A stretch of 48,421 nt of DNA from a virus (IMGVR_UViG_2907227753_000005), one strand, 5' to 3'. Positions 21,881 to 48,421 are shown, numbered from the stretch's first letter. Numbers and translations: made by a program. The notes: generated by a model from the letters alone, not told the origin.

Positions 21881-23089
21881 TTAGTCTTTGTACGGGTCGA
21901 ACTCGTCAGCTCCCGCCATGCACACACCGATAGGTCTTAGAACGTTCATGACGTTCAATGTACCTACATGAGAGTTCAGTACCTCTCGAAGCTTGCGGTA
22001 CACAAACGGACTCTCGTCAGTTCCCGCCCCGCGCAGTTCAACGCCATATTCTTGAATTGCTTGTGCCATCATCTCAGGAGAGATCGCACCGCCTGAACGA
22101 GTCTTTGTTTTGTAGTTCATCTTCCCTGCCGCCTGTGTTCGGCTCATTACGCGCCCTGCACCATGAACAGTGCTATAGAATGCGTTCGCGCTCTCAGTAC
22201 TCTCAACACCTTGAACGATCACCGAGATGTCACCCATGGAGCCGCCAATGAATCCAAGCTGACCAGGGGCAAGTGGTGTCGCGCCCTTACGAACAACAAC
22301 GACCTCTTTACCGTAGTGCTCCTCTTTCCAGGCGTAGTTATGGTGATTATGTACTGCAAGATCGTAATCCGCTCCCAGGATGTCCAACACTTGGTCAATA
22401 ACATAGTCACGACCTGCGTATGCGTATCGTCCTGCCAGTTTCATAGCACGGTAATACATATCACCAATCTCGCTGTCCAAGTCGAACAGTGTTGGTGGTT
22501 GCTCCATCTTCTCCCCAGGAGCCTTACCGAAGAACTCACGCCCCGCCCCGAGATTCAAGAACCCGCTTGCTGTCTTGTGACCAAACCCTCGGCTACCAAA
22601 GTGGTTCGCAATCCAAACCAACCCAGTCGTTGGCTCAACCAAGATGTCAACGAAGTGATTCCCTGAACCTACAGTACCCAGTTGATTACGGGCAAGGGAC
22701 TCCATCTTCTGATTAACACCCAGGTCTTTGAATACCGCCCAGTCAGGATCATCGAACAAGGCATGGTCAACCTTCTCACTGTTCACACGCCCTACTCCGA
22801 AAGAGATTCTACGTGCAATCTCATCCATTACCGCAGGGAGCTTGTCCTGCAAGTCTTCGACATGGAGGTCAGTACGAACAGCCTTGTTGCCGCAACCAAT
22901 GTCGTAACCAACACCTGACGGAGAGATTTGACCGTCATACACAATCACGCCGCCCACAGGTTGGCTGTAACCGAAGTGACCGTCAGCGCAAAGAACGCCG
23001 CCAACTACATTCCCTGTGTTCAAGCAGGTATCAAACTGACCGATAGTTTTCTCGTCATGTTTTCCGTAGATTACTCTTTTCATTTTCAT
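21881..23089 (-). CDS. rtcB: RtcB-family RNA ligase
   Basis: D.H.GY..PVG, GYDIGCG, GTVGSGNHF, H.GSRG.G, HNHHN, RKGAT, GSMG, HGAGR, DESP..YR. Confidence 0.95.
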   Translation of the reverse strand: MKMKRVIYGKHDEKTIGQFDTCLNTGNVVGGVLCADGHFGYSQPVGGVIVYDGQISPSGVGYDIGCGNKAVRTDLHVEDLQDKLPAVMDEIARRISFGVGRVNSEKVDHALFDDPDWAVFKDLGVNQKMESLARNQLGTVGSGNHFVDILVEPTTGLVWIANHFGSRGFGHKTASGFLNLGAGREFFGKAPGEKMEQPPTLFDLDSEIGDMYYRAMKLAGRYAYAGRDYVIDQVLDILGADYDLAVHNHHNYAWKEEHYGKEVVVVRKGATPLAPGQLGFIGGSMGDISVIVQGVESTESANAFYSTVHGAGRVMSRTQAAGKMNYKTKTRSGGAISPEMMAQAIQEYGVELRGAGTDESPFVYRKLREVLNSHVGTLNVMNVLRPIGVCMAGADEFDPYKD

Positions 23090-23113
23090 TCCCCCTAGTT
23101 CGTTTATAAGTTG

Positions 23114-24190
23114 TTAGATGACGCATTCAGATGAATTTTTGTCATCACGCATACGTGAGAACTGCGGGTGACGATAGAAACCGTCCTTGGTTCTCTGCAT
23201 GGCTTTTATCTCCATGACTTCACCGATGTAGTTCTGAGGGTTCTCGGACATGTCCTTACGAAGATCGTCCGTAATTCCCGAACACTCCCCAAGCTCGATC
23301 AGGTTTCCGTTTGCGTCGAACTTCCCGAACTTCACGGCACCTTTCCAGTCATTGAAGAAGAACTTGGTAACTGGAACCCAACCCTCTTTCGGAACAAAGA
23401 CTCTCTCACCGTCCACCAAAGTAGCGTCAAGGACGTTGTAAGTGTTAATTACAAACTCCTTCTCGCCGCTAGGATTGATCCAGTAAGACCACGATTCGAT
23501 CTCCTTGCCCGTGTACTCACGAACAGCATCTTTGAAGCCCATAATGACCACATCGTCATCAATCTCGGTCTTAACCTTGATCCAGTTCTTCGCGGGCTTC
23601 TTGCCAGGGACGTACTTACCGTTGATGTTCTTGAGCATGATACCTTCGCCACCCTCAGCAAGGACTTTAGCCAAGAACTCCTTCTTGTTCTCCGTGACAT
23701 ACTCAGGGCACTTCATGAACTCGTTCCGAACAACGGGAAACACTCTCTCAAGAATTGCTCTACGTTCGTGCCATGGCTTATCAACCAACCACTCCCCTTG
23801 GAACATGAGAATGTCGTAGACCATGTAGTACAACTTCCCTTGCTCCTCTTGTCGTTCGATAGCCTTTTCAGCCTTCGCCCCCAGGATGGAAGTCACCTCA
23901 TTGGATGTCTTGCCTGGGAAGTACAACTCACCATCCAGGATGAGTCCTGGGAAGGTTGAGAGATGTTCGGATAGATGAGGAACCCGATCACTCTTTTCAA
24001 CAGGGATTCCGTCCACGTCACTGATGCGACGAGAGAAGAACCTACCGACGATGGAGAGATAACGAGAACCGTCCCACTTAACCTCAGCAACATAATTCGG
24101 ATCACTCATGAAGGCTTCCAGTTTCGCGTCGTCCTTGACCGCATTACCTCCCATCGGCAGAACATGTTTATCTAATGGATAATCGCGCAT
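23114..24190 (-). CDS. lig: ATP-dependent DNA ligase
   Basis: motif I EVKWDGSR, LDGE, YDIL, EGIMLK, WIKVK, OB-fold RHP.F...R.DK. Confidence 0.92.
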   Translation of the reverse strand: MRDYPLDKHVLPMGGNAVKDDAKLEAFMSDPNYVAEVKWDGSRYLSIVGRFFSRRISDVDGIPVEKSDRVPHLSEHLSTFPGLILDGELYFPGKTSNEVTSILGAKAEKAIERQEEQGKLYYMVYDILMFQGEWLVDKPWHERRAILERVFPVVRNEFMKCPEYVTENKKEFLAKVLAEGGEGIMLKNINGKYVPGKKPAKNWIKVKTEIDDDVVIMGFKDAVREYTGKEIESWSYWINPSGEKEFVINTYNVLDATLVDGERVFVPKEGWVPVTKFFFNDWKGAVKFGKFDANGNLIELGECSGITDDLRKDMSENPQNYIGEVMEIKAMQRTKDGFYRHPQFSRMRDDKNSSECVI

Positions 24191-30932: not shown

Positions 30933-31724
30933 CTAGTTCATTAGTACGGCGACCGTTGACCCCGTGAGGAAACTCTGACCTCCGATGGACAAGGAGTACA
31001 CCTTATACGTCTTCGTACCCACTTTGATCTCGTCCCCATGGGATACACCTGCTGAAGGTACCGCGTAGATGTCGATGAGTTCTCCCCGCGCACCTTCTAC
31101 CCCGTTGCACATAATCAACGGAGCGAGATGATACAAAGAACCCCATCCTGGGTTTACTGGAAGCATTGCAGAGTAAGCATCATAGATGTTGTTCACCGTA
31201 AGCTTATCCTTGTCTCTGAGAGTCCTGATCCCGTTGTCCCCGTTATAACTCAGACCGATCCCGAGAGCCGAGGAGTCATTCTCAGTTGCATACCTGTTAA
31301 GGACTCCGAAATACCCAAGGTTAGCTACACCTGAAACAGAGTTCACATCACCTTGTAGGTAGATAATGATGCGGTTAGGTTGAACAGATACTTGGTAGTC
31401 GATCAAGAGGTTACTGTCAACCAAAGTGTTATGAACAACGAAGTCCTTCTTAATCTCAGCCCTACTCACGGGAATACTTCCGTCAGCCGACATAACATCT
31501 TCAGCAACACCCACAACTAACTTGTTTCCTGTGATGCTTTTGCTATTACCTACCTCAAGTCGAAAGAACAATTTATCTGTTCCAGTCGTACCTACCGATT
31601 TTAGTACGAGAGAGCTTGCATTCTCGTAATGGATAGACCAAGGAGAGCTGACAATAGTCTTGAACCCTTGGACGATATTTGCGTACAGCTCATTCAATTT
31701 CACTTTACCTGAGAATGTTGCCAT
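30933..31724 (-). CDS. virion structural protein, paralog 3 of a tandem trio
   Basis: shares the Y.G...,P..G..Y...P.....EG.RGE...,G..... module with the two upstream genes. Confidence 0.65.
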   Translation of the reverse strand: MATFSGKVKLNELYANIVQGFKTIVSSPWSIHYENASSLVLKSVGTTGTDKLFFRLEVGNSKSITGNKLVVGVAEDVMSADGSIPVSRAEIKKDFVVHNTLVDSNLLIDYQVSVQPNRIIIYLQGDVNSVSGVANLGYFGVLNRYATENDSSALGIGLSYNGDNGIRTLRDKDKLTVNNIYDAYSAMLPVNPGWGSLYHLAPLIMCNGVEGARGELIDIYAVPSAGVSHGDEIKVGTKTYKVYSLSIGGQSFLTGSTVAVLMN

Positions 31725-31740
31725 GTCTCATGGACACCTC

Positions 31741-32697
31741 CTATATTGGGAATAACAAAGCTCTCTGCCCGCCACCTAGAACACGAGCACCGTGGAAGAA
31801 CTTCGGTCGGGAGTAGAGATTGTTCTGACTAGAGATGTAGTAGTATCTGCCATTGTCAGCGTTAGGGTAATCCTGATCTACTACATGGAAGACGTAGTAC
31901 TTACCGTCAGCTCCTAAGTCTAGGATAGAACCATCAGGGTGTTGAACACCGTTCTTGAATACGATTGATCGCATACCTTTTAACTCTCCGCGAACACCTT
32001 CTTGAGGGTGGTACACCATGAAAGGTGTTACGTAATAGCGAGAACCAAGCCCTGGGGAAGCAAGAGATTCAGTTCCGAAGTTGTATAGTTCATACTCTGT
32101 ACCGTTACGAGAAGTTCTAACTACCCCTCGTGGTGTATCGTACTGATCGGCGGTATTATCGTCATGAAGGTTGAAAGGCATATGAGTAAACACACCGTAG
32201 AACTTGTTAGCAATAGCGGGGTCTTCGGTCTCGACAGCCTGACATCTACCTAGGTAAATCCGAACAGGGTACCCAGTAGTGTGATTGTCCAACCTCTCTC
32301 CGTGAATGAACATTACGTCTTCATTGGTAATGACCGTCCACTTATAGTTGATATTGTACTGCCCTGAATAGCACATGAACGGAGTCTCCGTGTAAGCACT
32401 GCTAGTGAATCCCGCAGGAGGGTTGGTGTACATATCAGGAGTTGCAACGTCGGTACCCAGGTTTTTCATCCCCCACCTGATGCTCACACCTCGCGCATGA
32501 GCGAACACGCACATAGTGAAGCGCATTTGACTGTCTTTCCTGTTGGTAGCAACCGCATTACCCCAGTTAGCGTAAGTAGTTTCCGCTGTGTACTTTACAA
32601 CCCAGTAAGGGTCTACCGCATTGGTTAGTGCGGTAGCTAGTTGATTAGCAAACGTGTTTAGAGTACTTGTGAACTCGTGTCTACGAACCATTGTCAA
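31741..32697 (-). CDS. virion structural protein, paralog 2
   Basis: YPVRIYLGR...EDP.IAN.F.GVF, SRNG, SPG, EGVRGE, PDGSILDLG, GGGQR.LLF. Confidence 0.7.
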   Translation of the reverse strand: MTMVRRHEFTSTLNTFANQLATALTNAVDPYWVVKYTAETTYANWGNAVATNRKDSQMRFTMCVFAHARGVSIRWGMKNLGTDVATPDMYTNPPAGFTSSAYTETPFMCYSGQYNINYKWTVITNEDVMFIHGERLDNHTTGYPVRIYLGRCQAVETEDPAIANKFYGVFTHMPFNLHDDNTADQYDTPRGVVRTSRNGTEYELYNFGTESLASPGLGSRYYVTPFMVYHPQEGVRGELKGMRSIVFKNGVQHPDGSILDLGADGKYYVFHVVDQDYPNADNGRYYYISSQNNLYSRPKFFHGARVLGGGQRALLFPI

Positions 32698-32700
32698 GGG

Positions 32701-33765
32701 TTACACCTCCTTCTCAATCTCAAACAAGAGTACCCTCTGTCCCCCGCCTAAGAGGAGGGAAGAATCAAAGAAATAAGGTTGCCCGTTAACATACGACCCA
32801 CTCGTTGTAAACCACCCTTGGTAGGAAGTGGGGTATGCCTGGGAGGTGGCGTGAAACACGTAGTACCGCTCCTCCCCCAAGTCAAGAATAGAACCATCGG
32901 GGTACTTACTTGCGTCCCTTAGAACTGCTGTCCTCACCCCGTGAAACTCCCCTCGAACACCCTCGTTACCGTGCCACACATAGAAAGGAGAAATAAAGAA
33001 TCTACCGCCCACCCCTGGGGAAGGCACCTGACTACTTGTAGCAAAGTGGTACAAGGCGTTTGGAGTACCATTGCGAGAGCTTCTTACATAACCCGATCCT
33101 GAGCTGTATTTTAGCTCATCCTCGGCATCGTCTAGGCTCATAGGAAAGTGGCTAAATACACCAACGAAGTCGTTTGCAATTAACGGGTCTTCATCTTCAA
33201 AGGGTTTAAGTCTACCCATATACAAACGTACTGGATAAGCCTGGGCAGGGTAGTTTTGCGGCTCCCCGTATACGAAGATGTAATCCTCAGCCGTAAACAC
33301 AGTCCACTTGTAGTACGTGTTTACATGGGAGCTTGTAGTTGCACTACTGTTGACGTATGAATCTCCTGTTTGGAAAGGTATCTCTGACCTGCTACCCACA
33401 TTCGTGGATAGGTCGGGGATGACGGAAGACCCGTTGTTTCTAATCCCTACCTTCATGATGTGGTTCTTGTAGGACATCCTATCACTCCAGGAGTTTACAC
33501 AAGACAAGGTAACACAGATAGTGAAAAACATACTTGGGTCTTTCACATTCTTCGCGGTAATTGTTCCGTAGTTAACAACGTTATGGTTGGTTCCACTCCA
33601 CACCTTAGAGTTCGCGTAAGTGTTGTTTGCGCTATAACCCCACTCCCAGTGAATGTCCCCGTAAAGTTCTTGAGACATGGTATTGTAAAGCTCGGACGCG
33701 AAGGTCGTTGTGGTAGCATAGAACTCATATCTACGTAATGATCCTAACAGTTGATTTTCAGCCAT
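32701..33765 (-). CDS. virion structural protein, paralog 1
   Basis: same motif series as 31741-32697. Confidence 0.7.
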   Translation of the reverse strand: MAENQLLGSLRRYEFYATTTTFASELYNTMSQELYGDIHWEWGYSANNTYANSKVWSGTNHNVVNYGTITAKNVKDPSMFFTICVTLSCVNSWSDRMSYKNHIMKVGIRNNGSSVIPDLSTNVGSRSEIPFQTGDSYVNSSATTSSHVNTYYKWTVFTAEDYIFVYGEPQNYPAQAYPVRLYMGRLKPFEDEDPLIANDFVGVFSHFPMSLDDAEDELKYSSGSGYVRSSRNGTPNALYHFATSSQVPSPGVGGRFFISPFYVWHGNEGVRGEFHGVRTAVLRDASKYPDGSILDLGEERYYVFHATSQAYPTSYQGWFTTSGSYVNGQPYFFDSSLLLGGGQRVLLFEIEKEV

Positions 33766-35958: not shown

Positions 35959-37089
35959 TCACAGGTAAGTGGAATACATCTTCAGAGAGAACTTGACTTG
36001 TGAAGCGTACCTATCCTGCGAGTCCTCCCGCGCCATCCTCAGCCAAAACTTATATGACTGCCCTGGCTCAATTTTGAACGCTGTTACCGAGTAACTGAAT
36101 CCACCTGGGAAGCCGCCGACATCAGGAGCGATCTGAACCTTATCTGTCCCTGTTGTCAACGCAAAAGTGACATCCTTGAAGTCACCCGTCATCATAGGGT
36201 TCTTGGCGAACATCTGAACCTCTTGCGTAGCTGAGCCGCCCGCAGTCAAGTAGCCAAGAAAGCGATCAGTATTCGGAGTAAGGAGTACATCAAAGTACCC
36301 GCCACTCTCTGTTGATTCCTTGTAATAAAGGTCAGGAATTACCTCGAAGTACATTAAGTCTCCTTTGTAGACCTTAATGTCGTCCATTCCCTGGAACCTG
36401 TTACCGTCCAATAGCTCTACACCGAAGTTTCCTTCAAACGGGTAAGGGTACCTATCCAGTTCAAAGATCACGGAGGTCTCCTCACTTCTGCACACCTTGG
36501 TTTCAAGAACCACGCCGTTGCTGTCGATTAGATCAACTTTAGTTCCCTTCGTCAGGTTATCTACCGTCACGGACGTTCCCCTGTTCACCCTGATGTATTC
36601 AACGGTCAACGGATGATCTCCATCGCCCCGCAGGTACAGCCCAATCTTAGGTGCCCCACTAAGCTCTACGCTACCGAGGATGTTCCAAATGACACCATCA
36701 TCTGACCAGTAGGCTGTGAAGTAGTTGTGGTCACGCACAAGGCGAATCCATGGGTAGGTCTTCAACAGCGGTGTTGGTAATGATGTATCCAGGAACTCCT
36801 CAATTTCCATATAGTTGTGCTCGTCCACAAAAACGACAATCCCACCGAAACAACCTTCTTTGTCAGGGTTGTAGTTGTTCTTCACGTCCATAACGAATTG
36901 CTTGGTATCCGTTAAAGGTTTGAGGAACATATAAAGAGTAGGGGCACCATGTTTAAGAACAAGGTTGCCCCCACTTACTTCATATCGGGTGGGGTCGTTA
37001 GGGAGCACTTCCCACTTGGGGTCAAGGTTAGAGTTCAGGAAGTCGTCTTCATAAATCCTCCCCGACTCCATAAGCCTTGCAACTCCCAT
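35959..37089 (-). CDS. virion protein with N-terminal ConA-like lectin/glucanase domain
   Basis: DF...LD.KW...,GG.VV..D..NY, WIRLVR....F.AY.S.DG..W pattern typical of the beta-xylosidase C-terminal ConA fold. Confidence 0.65.
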   Translation of the reverse strand: MGVARLMESGRIYEDDFLNSNLDPKWEVLPNDPTRYEVSGGNLVLKHGAPTLYMFLKPLTDTKQFVMDVKNNYNPDKEGCFGGIVVFVDEHNYMEIEEFLDTSLPTPLLKTYPWIRLVRDHNYFTAYWSDDGVIWNILGSVELSGAPKIGLYLRGDGDHPLTVEYIRVNRGTSVTVDNLTKGTKVDLIDSNGVVLETKVCRSEETSVIFELDRYPYPFEGNFGVELLDGNRFQGMDDIKVYKGDLMYFEVIPDLYYKESTESGGYFDVLLTPNTDRFLGYLTAGGSATQEVQMFAKNPMMTGDFKDVTFALTTGTDKVQIAPDVGGFPGGFSYSVTAFKIEPGQSYKFWLRMAREDSQDRYASQVKFSLKMYSTYL

Positions 37090-37105: not shown

Positions 37106-40100
37106 TTATGTGAATAGCCATATACGCTTACCGATCACGCACATCTTAGGTCGAGATTTCCAAATGTCCAGTAGACACTTGATAAGAGCTTCAACGCACT
37201 GGTCGCCCCCGCCGCCTTCGCAGTAAGGGGTAACATACACGTCATCACAAATCCAGTTAGTCAGCTCCATCCAGTCTAGTTGGGCATACTCGTAACTACG
37301 AACCCCGACCTCTTGGTATGAAGTGAACACCCACTTGAACTCATGCTTTCCCTTAGGTACTGGGTAAGAGAATGTATAGTAGCCACCCTCAGTGGTGAAT
37401 GTCTTGATTAGCTCTCCATCAATGAAGAAGTCAAGCTGACTGTCGAACGGCTCAGGAACCCAAACCCATCTCTCATATACCTTGAAGTCGTGCATACGGA
37501 ATGTAGTCATGTACCTTTTTCCTGTCCAAGAACTTACATAGCCTTTTTGATCTGTAGTGATCTCCACCCTGTATTTAGTATAGGGCGTTGGCTGTAATCC
37601 AGTAACGCTGAACTCGTGATAAGCTTCGCCGTAGTAGCGTTGATCGAGGACAACGGAACCGTCCTCTCGAATGACCCGCACCCTCATGTGGCTGTCATCA
37701 CAACCTCCCATCCAAACAGGCTTGTTGTCCCAAACCTCGAAGTGAGTTACCTCTGCCCATGACTTATCTACAGGAACGCTATCCTCCATGGAGAAGGAGC
37801 CACCCCAAATCATTGCACCGTCACCAGGACAGCCTTGCTCGAACTTTATCTCAACGCGGTAATCTTTTATCTCATCAGAGGTGTTATCGACAGTAATCTC
37901 TACGAACTCATCATCCGTATTAACAACATACTTGGTGTCGATCAGGTTACTGCCCTCGTAAGTCTTGATAGCAATTCGAGAACCTGGGCAAGCATCAAGC
38001 ATATTCTCGTAGAGCCGTATAACATCGAGCCACACATGACTCCCACCATCAGGTGCGGTTGTGTCAGGAGGAGGATCAGTCCACCACCCATCGTCAGGGT
38101 GAGGGGAGTCACCGCTTGGGTACACGTTCCCTTGAGCATCTACGCAGTAACCATTCCAGTACTCATTGAACTTACCTCCACTCAAAGTGAACCCGCCGCC
38201 ATTAAGACCCGTTCCTGAACCATTACCTTTTCTCAAGGTATACTGGACTGTGTAGGATTTCCCTGGTTGAGTGTATCCTGAGAAATTAATGTTGTACGTA
38301 GCAACGTTTCCGTCATTTCCGTAATATTTTTGGGAGTACACCTTCTGACCTGTCTCCTTGTCGTACAAATCGACAAGAACGTAAGTCTGATCGTCAAGCC
38401 TTGGTTTATCAATCAACCTCCAATCGTTTAATCCAGTAGGGTCGGATGTCTTCAGGCTGATGTTATTGATCGTGGCGTGGAAGTAGAAATTGTTTGATTC
38501 GTCGTAGTCATAATCGGGATAGGTATCGGTAATACCAAACACGATGGTGTACCAACCTGGGGAAACTGCCTTTGTTACGCTAAATGGCTCTGCTTCAGCC
38601 CACATGTTATTGGTGATGTTCTCAAAGTTGGAAATCTTACCATCGTGGTACCCTTGATTATCCTTCTCATCTAAGAGGGTAATCTTCTTGGACGGGTTGC
38701 TGTCAGGTATGAGGTACACTCGGAACCGCGCCCGTTGATCTCCTGTCCAAATGTACGTATGGTATAGGAAGCTAAGGCTCAAGCTCCCGTCACAGTAGAA
38801 CCGCTCAAACACCTTCTTGGTGTGTGGTGTGTCGAATTCTGTCAGAGGATTTCCTGGTCTCAGACCTTTGACCTTCAGTACGTAGTATTTCTGCGTGGAG
38901 TGTTGCCACACGATATTGTCGTTCGTATACCAGTCCTGATTAAGGGCACTCATGTTGATAGGGCGAAGACCTGGGGTAGTAACGTTTTGCGCGGGATACA
39001 CCTTCAGCTTCTCGAAGTAATCAACTTCCCCAAACTCAGGAGCGTAGAAGCTTCGGGTAATTATCTTACCGTCCTGCTCCACCCCGTGGGCAATAGGAAC
39101 CCCTCCATCGTAGTAAATCCCGCCTTGGTTACCCCAAGCCCATGAGGATGTGCGATCTGCTTCTCCTCGACTCGATGTCTGACCATAGTTGATTCCGTGT
39201 ACTTCACTTCCGCTTGGGTAGCAGTGTTCTCCGAATGGGTTGTCCGAACCACTCCCACTCCCACTTCCACCGCCGCTACCGCCTGAACCCTCGTTGCCAG
39301 GGATGTATACACTGCCATCCCGATAAACCCAACGGAAGGTGTGGTTTCCAGGAGGTAGTGGGTACATGCAGTTTGTACCTGCGTCACCGTTTTCTTCGTT
39401 CCCTGTCCAAACGGTAACCCCGTCAATCTGAAGTTCTAGCATCTCTCCGCTGTCGAATTGACCGCCATACTGCCAACAGATGTAACCTGAATTACTGATG
39501 CTTGCAGAGAAATCACAGGTGTACTCTCCACCATGTCCTTCAGCCCACATCACCCCGTCACCGACTGGTGGTGGGTCTGACGGATCAACTTCTGCTGACG
39601 GGTCAATCCAAGGAGGGCTTAGGTCAACCCAGTCCCAACCACTACTGAAAGTCAAAGCAGGGTCATAGTTGTCTTCCTCATTGAACAGCTCCTCAAACAC
39701 CATGATGTCGCGGGTATCTCCACTTACTGGGTCGTAGTTCCCGTCCATAGCAGGGTAGATACGCATATGCTCTTTGAATGTGACCTTGGCTCCTGGATTT
39801 AGGCGCATGTTGTAATTGATTGTATCCCCGTTATTCTCAGTCTTTGCCCCGCCATCAGTAGAATCCCAATCCCTTTGTATGTCCACGTAGCTTCCTAGTG
39901 GAGACTCCGTTCGGTAAGTTTGAGAAGCTGAGCCACCGTAAGAGAATACCTTCTCGAAGTTATACATAAAGGGCTGCTCCGTATAGGAATCACGTATAAG
40001 GAATTGAATGTTGTTATTACCTGCACTTAGCGGGATGCGGATACCACTCCCTGAACCCTGCTCTCTTGTGTAGTAAACGGACACCCCATTCACCATCACC

Positions 40101-41785
40101 TCGAAGGCTTCTGTCGGTCGTAGATCATGTGCGTAGTTGAAGATGAACCACCCATCGTCAGGTATATACACTGTTGTCTGCGCGACCATTACTCCTTCTT
40201 GGGGTTCATCAATGCGAAGGTAGTTTAAGTGGTCAACCCAGTTTGGTGATCCTGACATGCTCCATGAGTAGTAACTCAACCCCTGCCCCAAGTGGTATGG
40301 CTCCCAGTGGTCAATGATTCGCGGCGGGCATATAACCTCTAAGTTTCCGAAGATGTCAACTGTGGTATCTTCCCCAACCACCACTTCATATGTGATTAGG
40401 GCGTTGTCAACTTCAGTCTCGCTGTACTCCCCGTTCTGAATCCACTCCACACCGTGCAATGAATCAGCGTAACTTCCATGAGGAGCGTCACCATGCTGTG
40501 TCCTGCTCGTGAACTGGTCATCGAAGAATAGGTTGTAATCAGTGTTCGGGTAAGGTTCCCCATCAATCCCCATCTTGTAAGCAAAGGAGATGGTTCCGTC
40601 ACACTCGTTATCAAGCTCCATCGTCATTGTCTTACTTCTACGATCATCTGTAATGAACTGACCACTGAAGTGAGCCTGTGCGATACTCTGAGGAGACCTC
40701 ACAACCCAGTTCCCATCCGTTCTGACTTCCTCCCCGTCGAGGTCGTAGTCAGGGGGTGCAGGGAACTTACGTGTATCAACAATCTCTACGACCTCAATAT
40801 CCTTGATATAGATGCCGTTGTGTTGCCATACCTCAGGGCGCATCTTCCTTATCAGCCAGTCGAACTTATACATCTGCCCAGGCTGTAAGGTGAATGCCGC
40901 TTGTTGCCATCCCGTGTTCTCGCTCCATTCCCCGCCGACCTGCTGACCGTTGATATAGAACAGCATCCCGTTACCCCGCTTCGCGCTTGCAAGGTACTTG
41001 AACCTGACTTGACCATATCGCTTAACCCGCCAGTTGAATGTGATCTTTGACGAGTTACCAATCTCAAGGAGTCCAAGATCGAGCTTCAGAATCATGTCTG
41101 CGCCTGACTGCTCGTTTTTACCTACGGAATGGACTGTCACCCACTCTTGATCTTCAGTCGATGAAACGTAGCGGAAGAAGTCAGGGAACTTATCTGAGAA
41201 CGGTACATCCTCTTTCATCGAGAACAAAGGGATCTCATACACCGTAGCGTCGAAGTGGTTAAAGTAGTTTCCACTGAAATGATGGTAGTACGGTGCAGGG
41301 CATGTCGGTAAGGACACCCCAAGGTGTGTTCCTCCTGGCTCCTGAGCATTCTCAAGAATCTTATAGATACAGTCCTTGATCATCTGTAATACCCTTTGGT
41401 ACTGAGTCTTATCAGGTGGCTGTTGTTGCATCACCCACCACTCAATCCTGCGATACATGTTCCACAAAGCTTCGCGGCACCTGACGCTTGCATACCATGA
41501 TTTATCCCTAAGATACTGCTCAATGATTTGGTCGATTGTGTTTTCCAAAGCATCAAGCTGAACCGTCTGCCACCGACCGATCTGACCGTACCCAGGGTCG
41601 CCCAGGATAGGGTTGTTCTCGTCACCATGTCGGTCAGTCTCACTCCTAGGAGCATTGGGACTTTGCGGCAGGTGCTCGGGGTGGTTAGGATTTCCTGTGT
41701 CGTAATCCTCTGCGATCTTTGCCCTCATGTTAGCGAACAGAACGCCTTGTTGAGACTTGGTAAATAGCCCAAACGTATGACCCAT
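37106..41785 (-). CDS. 1559-aa tail fibre or adhesin built of beta-sandwich (galactose-binding-like) domains
   Basis: repeated G.I.F.Y...L.F.IDG.....Y.L..G.H.F.W modules; Cys-rich termini. Confidence 0.72.
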   Translation of the reverse strand: MGHTFGLFTKSQQGVLFANMRAKIAEDYDTGNPNHPEHLPQSPNAPRSETDRHGDENNPILGDPGYGQIGRWQTVQLDALENTIDQIIEQYLRDKSWYASVRCREALWNMYRRIEWWVMQQQPPDKTQYQRVLQMIKDCIYKILENAQEPGGTHLGVSLPTCPAPYYHHFSGNYFNHFDATVYEIPLFSMKEDVPFSDKFPDFFRYVSSTEDQEWVTVHSVGKNEQSGADMILKLDLGLLEIGNSSKITFNWRVKRYGQVRFKYLASAKRGNGMLFYINGQQVGGEWSENTGWQQAAFTLQPGQMYKFDWLIRKMRPEVWQHNGIYIKDIEVVEIVDTRKFPAPPDYDLDGEEVRTDGNWVVRSPQSIAQAHFSGQFITDDRRSKTMTMELDNECDGTISFAYKMGIDGEPYPNTDYNLFFDDQFTSRTQHGDAPHGSYADSLHGVEWIQNGEYSETEVDNALITYEVVVGEDTTVDIFGNLEVICPPRIIDHWEPYHLGQGLSYYSWSMSGSPNWVDHLNYLRIDEPQEGVMVAQTTVYIPDDGWFIFNYAHDLRPTEAFEVMVNGVSVYYTREQGSGSGIRIPLSAGNNNIQFLIRDSYTEQPFMYNFEKVFSYGGSASQTYRTESPLGSYVDIQRDWDSTDGGAKTENNGDTINYNMRLNPGAKVTFKEHMRIYPAMDGNYDPVSGDTRDIMVFEELFNEEDNYDPALTFSSGWDWVDLSPPWIDPSAEVDPSDPPPVGDGVMWAEGHGGEYTCDFSASISNSGYICWQYGGQFDSGEMLELQIDGVTVWTGNEENGDAGTNCMYPLPPGNHTFRWVYRDGSVYIPGNEGSGGSGGGSGSGSGSDNPFGEHCYPSGSEVHGINYGQTSSRGEADRTSSWAWGNQGGIYYDGGVPIAHGVEQDGKIITRSFYAPEFGEVDYFEKLKVYPAQNVTTPGLRPINMSALNQDWYTNDNIVWQHSTQKYYVLKVKGLRPGNPLTEFDTPHTKKVFERFYCDGSLSLSFLYHTYIWTGDQRARFRVYLIPDSNPSKKITLLDEKDNQGYHDGKISNFENITNNMWAEAEPFSVTKAVSPGWYTIVFGITDTYPDYDYDESNNFYFHATINNISLKTSDPTGLNDWRLIDKPRLDDQTYVLVDLYDKETGQKVYSQKYYGNDGNVATYNINFSGYTQPGKSYTVQYTLRKGNGSGTGLNGGGFTLSGGKFNEYWNGYCVDAQGNVYPSGDSPHPDDGWWTDPPPDTTAPDGGSHVWLDVIRLYENMLDACPGSRIAIKTYEGSNLIDTKYVVNTDDEFVEITVDNTSDEIKDYRVEIKFEQGCPGDGAMIWGGSFSMEDSVPVDKSWAEVTHFEVWDNKPVWMGGCDDSHMRVRVIREDGSVVLDQRYYGEAYHEFSVTGLQPTPYTKYRVEITTDQKGYVSSWTGKRYMTTFRMHDFKVYERWVWVPEPFDSQLDFFIDGELIKTFTTEGGYYTFSYPVPKGKHEFKWVFTSYQEVGVRSYEYAQLDWMELTNWICDDVYVTPYCEGGGGDQCVEALIKCLLDIWKSRPKMCVIGKRIWLFT

Positions 41786-47959: not shown

Positions 47960-48421
47960 TTACAGCGGGTAACGGACTTCCTTCAGGATCGCTACGCCCA
48001 TTCGTTGGTTCGCAGACAGGTTCATGAAGGTTTGCTCTGTGTCCGTATCGAAGTAGCGGTACACCTCTTGGTTCCAAGGCTTGCCTTCTACGTCAATGAT
48101 AAGCTCATCCAGGTGAAGGATGTTGTGCTTAGTAACCGCGATGCAGTTGTCGAACTGTCCACGGTAACCCTCGTAAGGGTGAACCACGTAGATCGGAGAC
48201 AGGTGGTACTTGGAAGTCCACTTGGACGCTTGGAAACCTTGTGGTTCCAGTTCCAAACCAGTGTCGCCCAGTTCAGGGTCAAGGTAGGCTTTGCCCTTAG
48301 GTGGAGCCTGTGTGATGAACGATGGGTAGTGACGTTGGAACTCAATACCCGATTTCGTCTTCAGCATTTGCAGGGTGTTGTTACCTGCGGAAGTGTACTG
48401 ACCGAAGTAGTACGTTCCAGT
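47960..48421 (-). CDS. virion structural protein, 5'-truncated by the window edge
   Basis: the frame stays open from ATG 48367 to 48421 (TGTYYFGQYTSAGNNTLQMLK...). Confidence 0.65.
   Translation of the reverse strand, partial: TGTYYFGQYTSAGNNTLQMLKTKSGIEFQRHYPSFITQAPPKGKAYLDPELGDTGLELEPQGFQASKWTSKYHLSPIYVVHPYEGYRGQFDNCIAVTKHNILHLDELIIDVEGKPWNQEVYRYFDTDTEQTFMNLSANQRMGVAILKEVRYPL

Follow-up and report, generated by a model that had tools for sequence, protein, structure and literature searches.

Gene and Genomic Context

How a phage protein of 1559 aa without recognisable family is folded, and what it does for the phage, is the question raised by gene P0001. The analysed window is a single stretch of 48,421 nucleotides (IMGVR_UViG_2907227753_000005), whose source is probably a Paenibacillus/Brevibacillus-type, Jenst-like phage that is temperate and has a non-contractile tail. 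The open reading frame occupies positions 37106-41785 on the minus strand with a good ribosome-binding site upstream; the plus strand carries stops throughout. P0001 revealed no match above cut-off in Pfam or PHROGs and thus no membership of a curated CBM or GBD sequence family, and nothing informative came from ESM Atlas features, from searching PDB sequences or from tblastn with annotated phages as the target. From the sequence alone, the original prediction had proposed a chain that lays down first halves of beta-sandwich modules, forms an intact central domain and returns with the missing halves in reverse order. All 25 tested motifs are present in the order claimed, with outbound motifs at aa 395, 464/476, 543/588, 656/668, 766/812 and 909/921, a central block at aa 998-1112 and return motifs at aa 1134, 1251, 1269, 1343, 1365 and 1449/1477.

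The neighbours of P0001 match gp128, gp129, gp132, gp133/135 and gp134 of phage 0305phi8-36, and P0001 sits between the gp129-like and gp132-like genes, the place of gp130. In 0305phi8-36, orf126-134 form an optional block, absent from the relative BtI1, which comprises curly-fibre candidates and low-copy virion proteins (PMC2147016). One of these curly-fibre candidates is gp129, and gp130 carries a mass-spectrometry-based annotation as a virion protein. A collapsed profile of the P0001 base weakly matched gp130 residues 835-1004 (18.8 bits, with no more than 3.2 reached by any of 200 shuffles); otherwise gp130 and P0001 showed no tblastn match and an hhalign value of 3.5%, and Jenst gp44 did not match P0001. 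While 0305phi8-36 has a tail sheath, none was found in four near-complete relatives of the present phage.

Domain Map of P0001

P0001 very probably consists of six split jelly-roll domains nested around an intact tip and standing on a helical base. The out-and-back nested architecture, taken alone, is in our view close to certain, being borne out by structure prediction, symmetric deletions, intact rejoined modules, cysteine co-loss and, weakly, covariation. Two points of this map differ from the original prediction. The helical N- and C-terminal segments add one further, outermost nesting level, and the single module class assumed there is replaced by two, alpha and beta, which alternate in layers 2-6. 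The features, in chain order with the neighbouring genes at the end, are:

37106-41785, minus strand: whole gene P0001, 1559 aa (open reading frame call)
41300-41608, minus strand: outbound half of helical base, aa 60-162, with C103, C139 and C162 (conservation, cysteine co-loss)
40766-41203, minus strand: D0, aa 195-340, intact class-alpha jelly roll set laterally at the base
40553-40750, minus strand: class-alpha outbound half of layer 1, aa 346-411, interrupted behind strand 3, with C395
40322-40546, minus strand: class-beta outbound half of layer 2, aa 414-488, with C486 (cysteine co-loss, covariation)
39977-40321, minus strand: class-alpha outbound part of layer 3, aa 489-603, only the last strand missing (6bqm_A superposition)
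39737-39976, minus strand: class-beta outbound half of layer 4, aa 604-683 (loss in P0027, intact copy in P0086)
39302-39718, minus strand: class-alpha outbound part of layer 5, aa 690-828, only the last strand missing (2xom_A superposition)
39236-39301, minus strand: Gly/Ser linker forming the outbound hinge, aa 829-850 (pLDDT <50; split site in two-gene relatives)
38984-39235, minus strand: class-beta outbound half of layer 6, aa 851-934, with C855 (8ic1_A superposition)
38432-38968, minus strand: intact tip, aa 940-1118, galactose-binding-like/CBM/MAM jelly roll (structural matches)
38138-38404, minus strand: layer 6 return half, aa 1128-1216, with C1214 (cysteine co-loss, superposition)
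38051-38137, minus strand: return linker rich in Pro/Asp, aa 1217-1245, counterpart of the outbound hinge (pLDDT <50, model residues 897-904)
38000-38050, minus strand: layer 5 closing strand, aa 1246-1262 (2xom_A superposition)
37775-37999, minus strand: layer 4 return half, aa 1263-1337, with internal pair C1266/C1319
37718-37774, minus strand: layer 3 closing strand, aa 1338-1356 (6bqm_A superposition)
37460-37717, minus strand: layer 2 return half, aa 1357-1442, with C1362 (cysteine co-loss, covariation)
37244-37459, minus strand: layer 1 return half, aa 1443-1514, with C1513 (P0055 junction, hhalign, cysteine co-loss)
37109-37243, minus strand: return half of helical base, aa 1515-1559, with C1522, C1530, C1537 and C1549
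41830-47859, minus strand: upstream 2009-aa low-complexity repeat protein (context, outside the nest)
35959-37089, minus strand: downstream homologue of 0305phi8-36 virion protein gp132 and Jenst gp45 (context)
47960-48421, minus strand: 3' end of a gp129-family gene (context; L001 orthologue matches gp129, E 9e-30)

Upstream of D0, relatives carry between zero and three extra intact modules, and the return half of the helical base holds a conserved C-terminal motif. The order of the halves is itself informative. To be completed, the outbound halves of layers 1-6 require long, long, short, long, short and long complements, and the return arm provides long, short, long, short, long and long, the exact reverse and one of 15 arrangements. 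Forward pairing is incompatible with this order, so that the predicted mirror-wise return of the halves fits reverse pairing alone, beyond chance.

Structure Prediction and Fold Comparison

An AlphaFold model spanning aa 340-1530 (1191 aa) reached a mean pLDDT of 82, with about 90 in the lone closing strands and values below 50 only at the linkers and the chain end; its pTM was 0.45, and overall shape, straightness and length are not fixed by it. For layer 5, the CBM61 structure 2xom_A superposes on the discontinuous range aa 693-1261 (127 residues, rmsd 2.6, Z 13.2). Layer 3 is covered by 6bqm_A on model residues 162-1015, corresponding to aa 501-1354 (115 residues, rmsd 2.6, Z 12.4), and layer 6 by 8ic1_A on aa 860-1210 (135 residues, rmsd 3.6, Z 10.2) as well as by 3nqh (Z 9.7), the model carrying layer 6 having a pLDDT of 91. 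Jelly-roll topology of the tip and layers 3, 5 and 6 was found with Z 10-13 and rmsd 2.6-3.6 over 115-137 residues. Single compact folds covering discontinuous ranges contradict a string of sequential domains without contacts between the halves, the outcome that would have spoken against the prediction. Layers 1, 2 and 4 probably form single domains as well, an assignment drawn from sequence evidence rather than from fold searches.

The fold common to the tip and layers 3, 5 and 6 is that of CBM61, CBM16, MAM and the Elapor1 GBD (PF23032), the last being precomputed on three P0001 homologues. Identity to these families is only about 10%, many unrelated families are tied and no ligand is thus indicated; in P0001, moreover, the matching layer domains are discontinuous. 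A Foldseek search of the 1191-aa model against viral or solved structures gave no match to the whole architecture (TM about 0.1), which is not proof of a new fold, and an Atlas shape search returned weak matches.

Layer Loss and Intact Copies in Relatives

Homologues with symmetric deletions, which the original prediction had named as a check, were found. Both halves of layer 4 are missing in P0027 and both halves of layer 5 in P0041, while P0055 is devoid of layers 2-6 and the tip, its layer 1 halves being joined directly; among relatives, zero, five and six inner layers are thus seen. P0055 is a complete gene with the same gene order in two contigs from different samples. Neither P0055, P0097 nor gp130 has a stalk, and since P0055 appears intact without it, the stalk may be accessory.

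Layers that are split in P0001 also occur uninterrupted: an intact layer 4 in P0086 (99.5 bits), an intact layer 5 in P0029 (123 bits), layers 3 and 5 intact in P0029/P0034/P0035/P0041, and a contiguous layer 1 in P0055. No intact copy of layer 2 was found among the relatives, and lists of contiguous copies for layers 1 and 6 were set aside, being confounded by adjacent modules. The junctions in P0055 and P0086 are short direct joins, and rejoined halves align with one another across the junction (hhalign, 97-98%; layer 1 with layer 5, 97.6%). Further variation includes peptidoglycan-binding domains inserted between tip and layer 6 in P0041 and, in P0035 and gp130, a long N-terminal extension in one chain with the P0001-like part. 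Weak helical-motif matches in L029 and L030, proteins of 4,100 aa matching no other segment, were taken as chance.

Cysteine Pairs, Covariation and Conservation

Co-loss of cysteines was scored as both present, neither present or discordant in 39 representatives, counts that are not phylogenetically independent. The result was 36/2/0 for C395-C1513, 33/4/0 for C486-C1362 and 29/6/1 for C855-C1214; in the helical base, C103-C1530 and C139-C1537 each gave 37/1/0, reflecting one loss event each. Five outbound/return pairs are therefore lost together nearly without exception and may form disulfides. Two of the three pairs originally predicted, C486/C1362 and C855/C1214, agree with this pattern. 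The third, C162/C1513, was rejected: C1513 is lost together with C395 while C162 stays (P0043, P0055), and C1513 accordingly pairs with C395. By elimination only, C162 is assigned to C1522; no partner was identified for C1549.

Covariation points weakly in the same direction, as 52-62 of the top 200 covarying inter-arm pairs fall into nested partner boxes against 26 expected, forward pairing giving 24-29. Mean identity declines from base to tip along both arms, from 0.65 (aa 60-146) to 0.21 in the tip, the return half of the base showing 0.66; the outbound helical base is the most conserved part and the tip the least conserved domain.

A Two-Gene Form

Several phages, an Anaerovirgula prophage among them, carry the gene in two parts, with the break at the flexible linker that separates layer 5 from layer 6; five domains and the base would then have to be put together from two chains. 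At the junction, L026 and L028 show a stop/start overlap with a change of frame, L027 and L079 a short gap with Shine-Dalgarno-like sites, and the Anaerovirgula locus (L056) direct adjacency in one frame; in L024, a transposon lies between the two genes. As these junction types differ at the same linker, sequencing error or read-through was ruled out as the source of the split. Two independent splits were considered, but the trees, both unrooted, disagree, one needing two changes and the other one. We consider it rather probable that the family occurs in a single-chain version as well as in the form of a natural zipper of two chains, with a seven-level cysteine-stapled stalk, co-evolving inter-chain cysteines and a second gene serving as an exchangeable cassette for the host-binding tip. 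Our literature search found no paper on a multi-domain fibre built from two such chains and no earlier description of the P0001 family or its two-gene form.

Proposed Role and Alternatives

Synteny and the variability gradient suggest a receptor-binding or tail-fibre role, and binding of the host is the function we favour, with some reservation. The model that we consider somewhat more plausible than its rivals taken together describes a low-copy virion protein, presumably monomeric, with a nested stalk, a glycan-binding distal unit and, in some phages, a two-gene heterodimer. Both chain ends would meet in a small cysteine-rich helical base docked on a fibre or tail-tip module of the gp129 family. 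From there, the chain would run out, lay down the first parts of six jelly rolls, fold the CBM-like tip and return, completing the layers in reverse. Layers 1, 2 and 6 would each hold one cysteine pair and every domain would be crossed by two chains, by which we propose that layers 1-5 may form a stiff, unfolding-resistant stalk of perhaps 25-30 nm overall, judged by domain count. The hinge of two linkers would let the distal unit, layer 6 and tip, swivel and bind a cell-wall glycan, and gain or loss of whole layers would alter stalk length. In one lineage, where the gene is cut at the hinge, the products may zip together as a heterodimer through strand complementation.

The same nested fold might instead belong to a structural or accessory part, such as a cap, spacer or initiator of gp129-family fibres or an environmental tether, which is possible but clearly less probable. 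The lack of a stalk in gp130, P0055 and P0097 fits such a part, as does the fact that the matching 0305phi8-36 module is optional and absent from BtI1 (PMC2147016); the most variable tip, the most conserved base and the distal addition of peptidoglycan-binding domains in one relative argue against it.

Phage fibres are mostly trimers. By this analogy, the halves could complement each other between the subunits of a domain-swapped dimer or trimer rather than within one chain, and co-loss and covariation are blind to this distinction, while the existence of two-gene relatives points to a possible complementation in trans. Such an oligomer is nevertheless quite improbable, as single-chain models close all three checkable domains with high confidence, the joins in P0055 and P0086 are short and direct, and no coiled-coil or trimer repeat was seen in the P0001 sequence. 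That each half is a small beta domain of its own or a degenerate repeat, strung one after another and in mirror order by coincidence, is scarcely credible, since the low pTM of the long model is the sole point in its favour and discontinuous superpositions, symmetric deletions, intact rejoined copies, cysteine co-loss and V-shaped conservation all oppose it.

Comparison with Known Systems

The design is less unusual than originally suggested, nesting being already known in phage particles (tail sheath) and in adhesins (RrgA, RTX split domains). SI3 of the cyanobacterial RNA polymerase beta' subunit (RpoC2) is a six-level recursive insertion described in a survey (PMC13114784) and, like P0001, is wired as A1-B1-C-B2-A2 from homologous small beta modules to a similar depth. 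SI3, however, consists of sandwich-barrel hybrid motifs in an enzyme, whereas P0001 consists of jelly rolls in a phage structural operon, and the survey passages on SI3 mention neither cysteine staples nor a split within the nest (PMC13114784). P0001 resembles SI3 in wiring only and does not belong to its hybrid-motif group.

The 'Russian doll' tail sheath proteins, T4 gp18 and diffocin CD1363, are also nested proteins of phage particles with variably present layers, but contain two to four non-homologous domains in a polymerising subunit, compared with six layers of homologous fold plus tip in a putatively low-copy protein (PMC6088184). Perhaps the best functional analogue is offered by the pilus tip adhesins RrgA and GBS104 (PMC7893114) and the split domains of RTX adhesins (PMC12077191), in which an out-and-back chain holds an intact ligand-binding domain distally; they have one to two Ig-like levels on a bacterial surface, in contrast to six jelly-roll levels in a phage. 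The gp130 protein of 0305phi8-36 (PMC2147016) shares the neighbourhood, and its C-terminal part weakly matches the helical base and one jelly roll; unlike P0001, it lacks a stalk, and a long N-terminal extension is part of its chain. Literature searches retrieved nothing relevant on phage fibres of nested design or on curly fibres resolved by cryo-EM.

Significance

The P0001 family is an unusually well-documented case of natural recursive domain insertion, its depth equalling the six-level example in the 2026 ECOD survey (PMC13114784). Layer variants, intact modules and the two-gene form allow direct tests of how nested proteins fold, inside-out or by strand zipping in trans, and how they grow, and the two-chain form offers protein design a candidate for a natural strand-complementation pair spanning several domains. 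For the phages themselves, P0001 provides a structural clue to the curly-fibre module of 0305phi8-36, so far unexplained, and suggests a non-trimeric way in which phages of Gram-positive spore-formers may extend a binding domain.

Domain architecture of P0001

P0001, the 1559-aa protein under study, is encoded by a single ORF (41785-37106, minus strand), and a nested architecture in which the chain runs out to a tip and back is, in our judgement, very nearly certain. All 25 motifs tested from the original prediction were found in P0001, in the order claimed. Sequence searches revealed no match among curated families, annotated phages or solved structures; the closest homologues (36-67% identity) are uncharacterised proteins encoded on viral contigs and in genomes of Paenibacillus and Brevibacillus, while remoter ones come from Anaerovirgula and from bioreactor and other metagenomes. 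The return parts of layers 1-6, the split jelly rolls, follow in the reverse of the outbound order.

Domain layout of P0001 (amino acid positions)
60-162: helical segment
195-340: D0, intact jelly roll
346-411 (outbound) and 1443-1514 (return): layer 1
414-488 and 1357-1442: layer 2
489-603 and 1338-1356: layer 3
604-683 and 1263-1337: layer 4
690-828 and 1246-1262: layer 5
851-934 and 1128-1216: layer 6
940-1118: tip, intact
1515-1559: C-terminal helix

Profile comparison of the rejoined halves unveiled two module classes, namely alpha, comprising layers 1, 3 and 5 (mutual probability 93-98%) together with D0 (82% with layer 5), and beta, comprising layers 2, 4 and 6 (97.8, 97.4 and 56.8%). 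The cut lies after strand 3 in layers 1, 2, 4 and 6, and before the last strand in layers 3 and 5; the alignment of layer 1 with layer 5 spans the layer 1 junction, over a stretch that is uninterrupted in layer 5. Return pieces have lengths that agree with reverse pairing and disagree with forward pairing. Among the top 200 covarying pairs, at an effective depth of only 37, nested partner boxes were enriched about 2- to 2.4-fold, with no enrichment for forward pairing.

An AlphaFold model of residues 340-1530 (26 sequences) reached a mean pLDDT of 82.4 and a pTM of 0.45; confidence is low mainly in the linkers (the Gly/Ser linker, about 825-847, and a portion of the return one), in two short loops and at the end of the chain. 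The carbohydrate-binding module CBM61 2xom (145 residues) superposes over 127 residues on layer 5 (693-1261; rmsd 2.6, Z 13.2), and a 115-residue domain of 6bqm on layer 3 (501-1354; Z 12.4), extents being the first and last model residues given by the structural aligner. In a second model (849-1222; pLDDT 91, pTM 0.66), the tip shows a galactose-binding-like/MAM/CBM fold (Z 10-12), and 135 residues of 8ic1 superpose on layer 6 (860-1210; Z 10.2, rmsd 3.6). Given these discontinuous superpositions, layers 3, 5 and 6 are each predicted as one single domain, closed by residues that lie 350-850 positions further along the chain.

Natural deletions and intact copies

The homologue P0055 has 799 aa and is encoded by a complete gene, found in conserved gene order on two contigs from different samples. 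It joins the equivalent of P0001 residue 413 directly to 1444, leaving layer 1 uninterrupted and without any of the inner parts. As it is the sister of P0041 in both (unrooted) trees, it probably represents a clean loss of inner layers. In P0027 the outbound and return halves of layer 4 are both absent, as are the two parts of layer 5 in P0041. Several homologues carry intact layer 3 and layer 5 copies near the N-terminus, and an intact layer 4 module, its halves linked by a few residues, was found in the unrelated 387-aa protein P0086 (99.5 bits). In P0086 (L080:1047-2210), this class-beta module lies between motifs resembling S-layer-homology repeats by eye, with no Pfam match. P0102, a distant 1423-aa protein, has two tandem matches to the outbound region of layers 1-3 and may be another nested arrangement.

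Cysteine pairs

Outbound and return cysteines are lost pairwise among 39 representatives (<80% identity); no count is phylogenetically independent.

Cysteine co-loss (both/neither/discordant)
486-1362: 33/4/0
855-1214: 29/6/1
395-1513: 36/2/0
103-1530: 37/1/0, single event
139-1537: 37/1/0, single event

C486-C1362 also ranks top in a blind covariation scan. The co-lost cysteines may be disulfide partners or metal ligands. The predicted pair 162-1513 failed, co-loss joining 395 with 1513; C162 and C1522 never vary and are putative partners by elimination. Because of the putative pairs 103/1530 and 139/1537, the C-terminal helix is predicted to pack on the N-terminal helical segment as a seventh, outermost level.

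Two-gene form

A split gene was seen at six loci, including an Anaerovirgula multivorans prophage (L056) and L027, whose contig terminates inside the second gene.

Split orthologues
L024:9845-18788
L026:9845-16833
L028:9845-16704
L056:9845-16333
L079:367-5315

Strand 7 of layer 5 is the last element encoded by the first gene, which ends at the position of the Gly/Ser linker between layers 5 and 6. The second gene supplies the remainder, from layer 6 and the tip through the return parts to the C-terminal helix; in L024, L026 and L028, distal segments were read by eye, profiles scoring layers 1-2 and the helix only. Sequencing error or read-through is ruled out because the junctions differ among loci, ranging from overlapping stop/start in another frame over short gaps and direct adjacency to an intervening transposon, a resolvase plus TnpB (IS607-like) element in L024. 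Across both genes the base and layers 1-2 keep their cysteine pairs; L079 has lost C486/C1362 and C103/C1530, in each case on both genes together. On the simplest reading of these sequences, the two products would form a heterodimer, with five domains and the base completed in trans; the split may have arisen once, one of two unrooted trees requiring a single change and the other two changes. Second proteins of the main two-gene clade carry 2-5 extra short repeats just ahead of the conserved C-terminal motif (L056:15800-16333; L024:17900-18788), resembling MucBP by eye, with no Pfam match.

Genomic context

Phage replication genes and an integrase of the XerD type lie in the window; judged by motifs only, the former include an RtcB-like RNA ligase gene and one resembling ATP-dependent DNA ligases.

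Further features of the window and related contigs
21881-24190 (-): the two ligase genes
30933-33765 and 47960-48421 (-): paralogues of the gp129/gp160 family (PHROG 9130) of Bacillus phage 0305phi8-36, candidate fibre subunits, two blocks flanking the P0001 gene
41830-47859 (-): 2009-aa protein of short degenerate repeats (about 670 to 2000 aa in relatives), no family match
L024:18799-19677, L026:16844-17704, L078:7922-8839 (PF02562 on L078): PhoH-like ATPase gene within the structural operon, adjoining the P0001 orthologue

On the closely related L001, neighbours match gp128 (E 8e-29), gp129 (1e-23 and 9e-30), gp132 (3e-40), gp133/135 and gp134 of 0305phi8-36, as well as gp40-43 and gp45 of Jenst, a siphovirus (PMC4909266). 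In the 0305phi8-36 lineage this block is an optional module (PMC2147016). Its gp129 is a candidate for the curly fibres, and mass spectrometry marks gp130 and gp132 as virion proteins. A profile of the helical base with rejoined layer 1 matched gp130 in one stretch (835-1004; 18.8 bits, <=3.2 in 200 shuffles), weakly and in the expected place. Four near-complete relatives yielded no sheath gene. In P0035 and gp130, the P0001-like part shares its chain with a long N-terminal extension, which may be a fusion with the 2009-aa repeat protein.

Comparison with known nested proteins and possible function

Recursive insertion six levels deep is described for cyanobacterial RNA polymerase SI3 and called rare (PMC13114784); phage sheaths provide examples of Russian-doll domains (PMC6088184), and out-and-back stalks with a binding tip are known in RrgA (PMC7893114) and RTX adhesins (PMC12077191). 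P0001 belongs to none of these families and works like the latter two, its stalk running out and back with the tip at the end. Conservation declines toward the tip, mean identity being 0.65/0.66 at the N- and C-termini, 0.38/0.48 in layer 1 and 0.21 at the tip, and P0041 (L077:10001-15550) carries two peptidoglycan-binding (PG_binding_1) domains after the tip, ahead of the return half of layer 6. The conserved base would thus dock on the particle, with the variable, host-facing tip on a hinge at the end of a stalk estimated from domain count at 25-30 nm. A putative role in host binding is plausible and somewhat favoured. What surprises most about the P0001 family is the putative two-chain form of some relatives.
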